Shown: piece by piece, positions 12,978-13,027 of the stretch
How the letters are laid out: every line of letters starts with the position of its first letter
Position numbering within the stretch: the stretch's first letter is position 1
From: an uncultured Chloroflexia bacterium
GTDB lineage: Bacteria > Chloroflexota > Anaerolineae > JAAYZQ01
Length of the DNA stretch: 24,000 nt
NCBI GenBank assembly: GCA_963700285.1
Contig: CAVOXA010000022.1
Span: forward strand, 123,665-147,664
Direction: 5' to 3'
Translations under genes and position numbers: made by a program
The notes under the pieces: model-generated
What the model was told of the DNA's origin: nothing
Seen by the model: the letters and a program-made list of their open reading frames with translations, nothing else
Databases searched by the model: none

Positions 12978-13006
12978 TTGACGGGTTCACGTCCGACTCG
13001 CATAAT
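12978..13006 (+). promoter_or_regulatory. Strong sigma70-type promoter (TTGACG-17-CATAAT)
   Basis: -35 TTGACG 12978-12983, 17-nt spacer, -10 CATAAT 13001-13006. AT-rich context. Points into the portal gene 88 nt downstream. Confidence 0.6.
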
Positions 13007-13013
13007 GAATAAT

Positions 13014-13027
13014 AGAACATATGTTCG
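13014..13027. promoter_or_regulatory. LexA (Cheo-type SOS) box
   Basis: AGAACATATGTTCG. Perfect GAAC-N4-GTTC palindrome, 12/14 match to CGAACRNRYGTTYC, beginning 8 nt after the -10 hexamer. Confidence 0.6.

Follow-up and report, generated by a model that had tools for sequence, protein, structure and literature searches.

Temperate phages usually sense DNA damage either through a cleavable repressor of their own or through an antirepressor under the control of LexA. Coliphage 186, which acts through tum, phages with antirepressors of the Gifsy/Fels type, and CTXphi, at its promoter PrstA, each link induction to the SOS response by means of a host LexA box on a prophage promoter. The target of LexA is a small regulatory gene in coliphage 186 and Gifsy/Fels and an early promoter in CTXphi, and cleavage of a phage repressor is not needed in these systems. 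Chromosomal clusters of phage structural genes whose expression is tied to DNA damage are also known, and include the R- and F-type pyocins, other tailocins, and RcGTA. Tailocins have neither portal nor capsid, the pyocins are under PrtR/PrtN, and RcGTA is connected only indirectly through LexA. To our knowledge, direct repression of a virion-gene promoter by LexA has been worked out for one phage only, GIL01.

GIL01 is a Betatectivirus of Bacillus thuringiensis whose late promoter P3, which serves the genes for virion maturation and lysis, is repressed by LexA (PMC6182141). P3 has two tandem LexA boxes downstream of the -35 hexamer and needs both the corepressor gp7 and the LexA-like activator gp6 (PMC6182141). 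A candidate SOS box at a terminase gene of Leptospira was considered as a further precedent and rejected, because it is not induced.

Here we describe a promoter within a stretch of 24,000 nucleotides (the window). Judged from its sequence and that of its relatives, it is probably the late promoter of a temperate tailed phage that resides in the chromosome of an Anaerolineae-type member of the Chloroflexota, beside the genes hgcAB, and that is directly repressed by the LexA protein of its host.

Promoter, palindrome and genes of the window

The original prediction described a near-consensus promoter in GC-rich DNA, a perfect GAAC-ATAT-GTTC palindrome 8 nt past its -10 hexamer, and a portal gene as the first gene downstream, all of which are present. 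The promoter consists of TTGACG (12978-12983), a 17-nt spacer and CATAAT (13001-13006). It agrees with the consensus at ten of twelve positions, has a spacing within the 16-18 nt typical of sigma-70 promoters, and is the top sigma-70-like match within 8000-24000; the GC content around the site is about 65%. The palindrome AGAACATATGTTCG occupies 13014-13027 and contains the core GAACATATGTTC (13015-13026), an inverted repeat in which the half-sites GAAC (13015-13018) and GTTC (13023-13026) flank an A/T-rich centre. It begins 8 nt past the -10 (8-9 nt for the core). Given the position of the -10, transcription is predicted to start near 13013, and the operator would therefore span about +2 to +13. 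The box thus overlaps the core promoter and the predicted start in the window, and it lies inside a 16-17-nt spacer in relatives. The features of the region, in which L001/L002 denotes the closest relative and P0001 an intact 493-aa portal, are as follows.

12749..12977, no strand: junction between the host genes and the prophage promoter; hgcB ends at 12748; homologous to L001/L002 over its full length except for indels of 30 nt and 11 nt immediately upstream of the -35
12978..12983, + strand: -35 hexamer TTGACG; identical in L002, with a TTGACA-like hexamer at the matching position in L021, L024, L029 and L030
13001..13006, + strand: -10 hexamer CATAAT, after the 17-nt spacer; identical in L002
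13011..13030, no strand: predicted LexA-type SOS operator AATA-GAACATATGTTC-GTTG; core at 13015-13026; covers the predicted start at about 13012-13014
13081..13087, + strand: ribosome-binding site GAGGGGA of the portal gene, as read from the sequence; ends a 5' UTR of about 80 nt
13094..14558, + strand: portal gene, the first of the operon; phrog_10963, E 1e-17; 77-82% identity to P0001 in two frames
14611..15093, + strand: 160-aa ORF found in the window and L002 only; preceded by an AATTCGT 9-mer array
15205..17304, + strand: protease-scaffold-major capsid fusion; PF25209 Phage_capsid_4, phrog_133 and phrog_4523; 57% identity to the 734-aa protein of L030
17422..22541, + strand: further late genes (head-tail and tail candidates), including 18049-18708, 19729-20214, 20605-21330 and 21765-22541; orthologues in L002 and L030
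22611..24000, + strand: adaptor-like gene in several frames, running past the end of the window; homologous to proteins of 423 aa that match SU10_adaptor faintly

The portal start, ATG at 13094, coincides in the alignment with the start called for the portal of L001, and the window protein is 77% identical to P0001. The closest phage portals in GenBank are only 24-28% identical, and no cultured phage is close. All genes from 13094 to the end of the window lie on the + strand, giving a run of virion genes on one strand of at least 11 kb. The junction at 12749..12977 contains no tRNA gene and no recognisable att site, the 160-aa ORF has no Pfam or PHROG match, and a search of the window against Rfam found no RNA family.

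The first 12,748 nucleotides of the window hold ordinary host genes on both strands, which encode ABC-2 permeases, a double solute-binding protein, M24 peptidases, a GrdB-like fragment, and HgcA and HgcB. The gene hgcA (11451-12461) encodes a CdhD-like domain, the motif NVWCAAGK and a C-terminal membrane domain. The gene hgcB (about 12461-12748) encodes a 2x[4Fe-4S] ferredoxin and ends in CCG at 12748. The two form a mercury-methylation pair directly upstream of the prophage, and L001 shows the same arrangement. Strand composition jumps at the prophage boundary (13000-24000): GC skew, near 0 before it, drops to about -0.25, and AT skew rises to about +0.2; the coding strand of the virion genes is C- and A-rich throughout.

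Two kinds of repeat occur in the late region. Arrays of two to four copies of a 9-nt repeat (AATTCGTRA) that end in ATTCGTGGCAAR directly precede the ribosome-binding sites of five late genes (14568-14615, 17342-17405, 18837-18884, 19290-19343 and 22537-22600). Single copies are present in L002 (14248) and L112 (9909), and every repeat contains TAAAAT. These arrays could be internal promoters or iterons bound by a regulator. The second repeat is the hairpin CCTGTCCTGAGCGCAGCGACAGG, found in four intergenic gaps of the prophage and, in three of the four, inside a 9-mer array. Further copies lie among the host genes of the window and in the host flanks of other Chloroflexota loci, but the orthologous element of L002 has none. 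Its positions are 10198, 15153, 17371, 19309 and 22566 in the window, 180(-) in L009, 4296 in L021 and 276(-) in L024. It has the appearance of a REP/MITE-like element of the host that invaded the prophage of the window.

The element and its relatives

Public metagenomes contain hundreds of homologues of the portal. Family loci in species-representative genomes come almost entirely from Chloroflexota MAGs, with the annotations Anaerolineae, Anaerolineales, "Chloroflexia" and Thermoflexales. One contig (represented by the loci L078 and L237) closes into a circle and provides a complete family genome of 40.8 kb. It begins with the promoter and box, followed by small ORFs, terL, the portal, the capsid fusion, tail genes and the adaptor. 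Beyond the adaptor lie an M23 peptidase gene (the lysin), an HTH_17 excisionase-like gene and, on the opposite strand, an integrase gene, and the early block comprises DnaA_N-like, methyltransferase and ParM-like genes. The L029 element runs on into DnaD-like and DnaC-like replication genes (on L111), with an integrase further on. In viral contigs, same-strand genes for a D12 methyltransferase, a PAPS-reductase-like protein and a GerE-type HTH protein lie upstream of the promoter with its box.

The part of the element that the window covers, 11 kb long, contains no genes for integration, excision or replication; relatives have them (L111, L237). Because the relatives encode integrases, excisionase-like and replication proteins, lysins and terminases, we take the family to be temperate phages and the promoter with its box to be their late promoter. 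The window itself has the portal and HK97-type capsid of a tailed phage. A resemblance to tailocins or GTA-like elements had been proposed for this cluster, and it is not upheld. The portal and the protease-capsid fusion are among the first genes of the cluster, which argues against a tailocin. The replication and integration genes of the relatives argue against a GTA, as does the finding that synonymous divergence is higher in the prophage genes than in the host flanks; the window showed no terminase.

In this family, cargo is concentrated at the terL-portal junction, which forms a hotspot (L024 6137-9766, L021 5688-9779, L081 5962-9767). The insert of L024 carries defence-type genes (Mrr, REase-ARP, DUF4365), that of L021 has DUF1214/DUF1254 genes, and L081 holds two large unknown ORFs. 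As regards the idea that attP lies between terL and the portal, so that integration would place terS-terL at the opposite end of the prophage, no integrase is present in the 4-kb inserts of L024 and L021. Genes for PALP-family enzymes flank the L029 prophage on both sides (L111 16495-18493 and L029 3883-4836), and in this element a gene for an alcohol dehydrogenase separates the replication genes from the integrase. These enzyme genes may be phage cargo or may mark the true boundary of the prophage.

The closest relative, L001/L002, lies at the same chromosomal place as the window element, with the gene order grdB-like, hgcA, hgcB, portal. With dN/dS of 0.11-0.25, the prophage genes have been under purifying selection since the split from L002. 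Most prophage genes have dS of 0.6-1.1, compared with 0.13-0.43 for the flanking host genes, and this excess makes strict co-inheritance of prophage and host doubtful. One Chloroflexota MAG (MFD03804.bin.1.93) contains three copies of the family (L002, L021 and L024), one of them at hgcAB. The other two are decayed remnants in which terminase and portal are fragmented and the promoter with its box is retained before the portal.

The window copy shows signs of damage. There are at least seven frame changes in its prophage half, affecting the portal, the capsid fusion and the adaptor-like gene, versus about one in the host half. The portal switches frame once near 13312-13314, and the capsid fusion changes frame within 16860-17190, where the 734-aa homologue of L030 is intact. 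The single change in the host half splits an M24 peptidase gene into 8419-9387 and 9344-9580. Homopolymer errors were considered as the source of the excess and are unsupported, as long homopolymers are fewer in the prophage half than among the host genes. The excess could reflect real decay or a local assembly problem. In addition, no terminase precedes the portal in the window, although terL is present in most relatives. A family profile search for terL found none in the window, which stops 11 kb into the element, nor in L002, L029/L111 or L030; the spans concerned are 11 kb in the window, 11 kb in L002 and about 23 kb in L029 plus L111. With no terminase seen and at least seven frame changes, production of virions from the window locus is doubtful, and this copy may be defective although its regulatory site is intact. 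From its sequence, it may be an intact prophage, a defective prophage or a satellite-like derivative that lacks a terminase.

The last of these possibilities extends to all the elements whose operon opens with the portal (window/L002, L029 and L030). They could be a lineage whose terminase genes have been lost but which goes on moving between chromosomal sites and is held under purifying selection, made up either of domesticated, GTA-like particle producers induced by the SOS response or of satellites that borrow the terminase of a helper, a related phage in the same cell. We consider such a lineage unlikely. The stretches without terL are what it would predict; however, terS-terL may simply sit at the right ends of these elements, beyond the sequence covered, and the L029 element has phage replication genes and a nearby integrase. 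Occupation of the same chromosomal site in two diverged genomes and the low dN/dS would also fit, but the dS values speak against simple vertical co-inheritance and the window copy is burdened with frameshifts. The hairpins of host REP type that have colonised intergenic gaps of the element and the three family copies in one MAG are further points in favour. If such a lineage existed, its members would be LexA-triggered satellites that encode capsid and tail and use the terminase of related helpers, or SOS-induced particle producers in Chloroflexota beside hgcAB. The reading of the family as temperate phages is the one followed below.

The box in phage promoters and lexA promoters

When the intergenic regions of the window and L002 are aligned, the -35, the spacer, the -10 and both half-sites are identical, and the box differs only in its centre, where ATAT is changed to AAGT. 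Invariant half-sites around a variable centre are the pattern of substitution expected if the sequence serves as a GAAC-N4-GTTC operator. Elsewhere in the family the promoter with its box comes in two geometries. In type A the box is inside the spacer, and in type B, to which the window belongs, it follows just after the -10. Examples are listed here.

L030, type B, portal-first: TTGACA-16-TATAGG-agcaggta-GAACAAATGTTC
L024, type B, portal-first: TTGACA-17-TATAAT-gctaac-GAACGTTTGTTC
L021, type B, portal-first: TTGACA-17-TATAAT-gctaat-GAGCAAATGTTC
L029, type A though portal-first: TTGACA-caataGAACAGATGTTC-TATAAT
L013, type A, terminase-first: TTGAAT-gaataGAACATATGTTC-TAACAT
L019, type A, terminase-first: TTGATT-ggataGAACATATGTTC-TAATAT
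L070, type A, terminase-first: TTGACA-tccacGAACAAACGTGC-TAAACT

The portal-first loci L029, L030, L021 and L024, which have the promoter and box too, are bordered by unrelated host genes. The operon of most relatives opens with a small ORF and the large terminase (Terminase_6C), followed by the portal, and the box exactly occupies the space from a TTGAC-like -35 to a TAnnnT -10 at 0.4-1.3 kb upstream of terL. There is one box per promoter, sometimes two. A strict scan for the composite of promoter and box in 110 related sequences (1.17 Mb) gave 32 matches, compared with 1.0 in simulations; 27 of these, in as many loci, are on the coding strand and no more than 4.5 kb upstream of the portal. 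Where terminase-first loci have enough upstream sequence, a promoter-embedded box with at most one mismatch is present in 19 of 33. At the criteria used, about 40% of terminase-first relatives have no recognisable box, nor do most distant relatives (portal identity below 45%).

The complete 40.8-kb genome has two more LexA-type boxes at L237 13352-13550, in sequence resembling a promoter that immediately precedes the HTH_17 excisionase-like gene, the neighbour of the integrase. One of them is embedded in TTGACA-acgcGAACACCTGTGC-TACAAT. Excision may therefore be SOS-controlled too.

Metagenomes were also scanned for the extended consensus TAGAACAWWTGTTCTA. It precedes recA in low-GC contigs and directly precedes lexA in the high-GC contigs L130 and L117. 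Homologues of the LexA of L130 led to three further lexA loci (L233, L235 and L238). The five lexA promoters read as follows.

L130: TTGACA-aaTAGAACAAATGTTC-TATAAT
L233: TTGACA-aacaGAACAATTGTTC-TATAAT, plus a second box
L235: TTGACA-aataGAAAAAATGTTC-TATAAT-a-GAACAAAGGTTC
L117: TTGACA-17-TATAAT-aggaa-TAGAACAAATGTTCTA
L238: two perfect GAACGTATGTTC boxes in a TTGACA...TATAAT promoter

The box is within the spacer in L130, L233, L235 and L238 and just past the -10 in L117 and L235. These promoters, all from high-GC organisms, have the extended box of the phage promoters (AATAGAACAnnTGTTCTATA), and among them the same two geometries occur. The 20-nt consensus of 29 phage boxes (AATAGAACATATGTTCTATA) is nearly identical to that of eight lexA boxes (AATAGAACAAATGTTCTATA). 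A weight matrix was built solely from six lexA boxes that had been found through protein homology. With this matrix, the site described here ranks first in the window with a score of 17.5. The next best site scores 9.9, and the 95th percentile of the background is 10.7 per 1.4 kb. In three of the three loci retrieved by homology, lexA is followed on the same strand by a gene for an FtsK/SpoIIIE-like ATPase and at least one small ORF (L233 6001-8349, L235 6001-8097, L238 10001-12394), an order that suggests a conserved SOS operon in the organisms that carry these lexA genes.

The link between the lexA contigs and the hosts of the phages consists of shared assembly and composition only. L233 is part of a 1.84-Mb contig from the assembly that also contains L001 and L029 (ERZ25039514). 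In tetranucleotide composition it agrees with the host flank of L029 (0.83-0.87) as well as one half of a contig agrees with the other (0.86-0.88), and L238 is similar to the host flank of the window (0.89-0.92). In 37 high-GC contigs, 64 ORFs flank the exact box, and the families most often found among them are IMS (Y-family polymerases) and PHP/DNA_pol3_alpha (DnaE2-type genes), along with LexA. Both types of polymerase are core SOS genes, and GAAC-N4-GTTC is the LexA motif of Firmicutes and Actinobacteria (PMC3323433). A literature search on the LexA motif of Chloroflexi yielded nothing usable. For LexA of Dehalococcoides, a member of the Chloroflexi, the GAAC-N4-GTTC motif has reportedly also been shown.

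A regulator other than LexA, either a repressor encoded by the element or a further host factor with an inverted repeat of this kind as its target, might bind the same sites. In its favour, many sites in the family deviate to GTGC or GTAC in one half-site, and the taxonomic tie just described is indirect. We nevertheless judge it very unlikely, since the same 20-nt box is found at five lexA promoters and at genes for Y-family and DnaE2 polymerases. An element-encoded repressor is further argued against by the gene content of the family. Its members have no early, replication or other non-structural gene in common that could be a dedicated repressor, and the 1.2 Mb of family loci contain no LexA/S24-like gene; nor do they contain a RecA homologue. 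Moreover, the operator is kept across phages with unrelated early regions, unlike the operators of phage immunity systems.

It is highly improbable that the palindrome is a site of DNA processing, such as a cos or pac element or an att core, that lies near a promoter by accident. The palindrome does sit at the left boundary of an integrated element, and in most relatives the box is just upstream of a small ORF and the terminase, a frequent location for packaging sites. However, it fits exactly between the -35 and -10 in more than 20 loci, it occurs at the promoters of lexA and polymerase genes that have nothing to do with packaging, and in portal-first loci it is far from any terminase gene. 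Chance co-occurrence is effectively refuted by the comparative data: each element is short when taken alone, and GAAC-N4-GTTC occurs twice in the window (the second copy, at 4333, is within a solute-binding-protein gene) against 0.33 expected, a count of two that is reached in 4 of 100 shuffles of the window, but the composite is expected about once in 1.17 Mb of Markov-simulated sequence, or about 0.02 times per 24 kb, and its position and sequence are conserved in dozens of relatives.

Conservation among relatives, the same box in lexA promoters, the rank of the site under the lexA matrix, and the polymerase genes beside the exact box together make it very probable that the palindrome of the window is an operator for LexA, at the promoter from which a temperate phage transcribes its late genes. 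The central claim of the original prediction, a LexA-type SOS box on a strong promoter that drives virion genes, thus stands up to comparison with the phage relatives, the five lexA promoters and the polymerase genes. From the architecture and its conservation we infer the start site, binding by LexA and induction by damage, which would operate as follows. In an undamaged cell, a LexA dimer on the operator would block formation of the open complex or escape from the promoter. Upon DNA damage, activated RecA would stimulate self-cleavage of LexA, and the promoter would fire, so that the genes for portal, capsid and tail are expressed. Among the relatives this control would mostly act through an operator in the spacer between -35 and -10, on an operon that opens with terS-terL-portal. 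Since further boxes guard the excisionase-like gene in the 40.8-kb genome, LexA appears to be the master lock on the lytic programme, as it is in GIL01.

Comparison with known SOS-controlled systems

That direct control of structural genes by LexA is unusual, as originally noted, is correct in that it is rare; it is not unprecedented, given that P3 of GIL01 is LexA-repressed (PMC6182141). [quoted passage not shown] It offers a testable model of prophage induction for a major environmental phylum with almost no phage genetics, as well as a computational handle on the SOS box of Chloroflexota hosts. In the genome of the window, a prophage predicted to be damage-inducible lies directly beside the mercury-methylation genes hgcAB.

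Among host promoters, there is a close likeness to the autoregulated ones of lexA (L130, L117, L233, L235 and L238), which have the same box in the layouts TTGACA-N4-box-TATAAT and TATAAT-N1-5-box. Unlike the phage promoters, they drive lexA and the ftsK-like gene downstream, and they often have two boxes. Tailocins differ in that the cluster of the window includes a portal and a capsid and that its relatives have integrase, excisionase-like, replication and terminase genes. Coliphage 186, Gifsy/Fels and CTXphi differ in the target of control: here it is the packaging and structural operon whose own promoter carries the box, and in L237 boxes precede the excisionase-like gene as well.

The most similar system is GIL01, which depends on LexA and not just on a repressor of its own, and whose lytic genes are induced by DNA damage. 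The two have in common a box of the GAAC-N4-GTTC type for host LexA in a promoter of virion genes, predicted here from sequence alone. In the complete genome (L078 and L237), boxes are found on the late promoter and before the excisionase-like gene, which may correspond to the boxes expected, in lysogeny of the GIL01 type, on the late promoter and on the promoters that start the lytic programme. However, GIL01 is a tail-less tectivirus of a Firmicute that is maintained as a linear plasmid, and the phages described here are tailed, integrate, and have Chloroflexota as hosts. P3 has two tandem boxes, whereas the promoters of this family have one, sometimes two, placed in the spacer or at the start site. 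In addition, GIL01 has the LexA-like gp6, and the 1.2 Mb of loci of this family contain no LexA homologue. The comparison suggests that control of a late promoter by LexA arose independently in two unrelated lineages of viruses.
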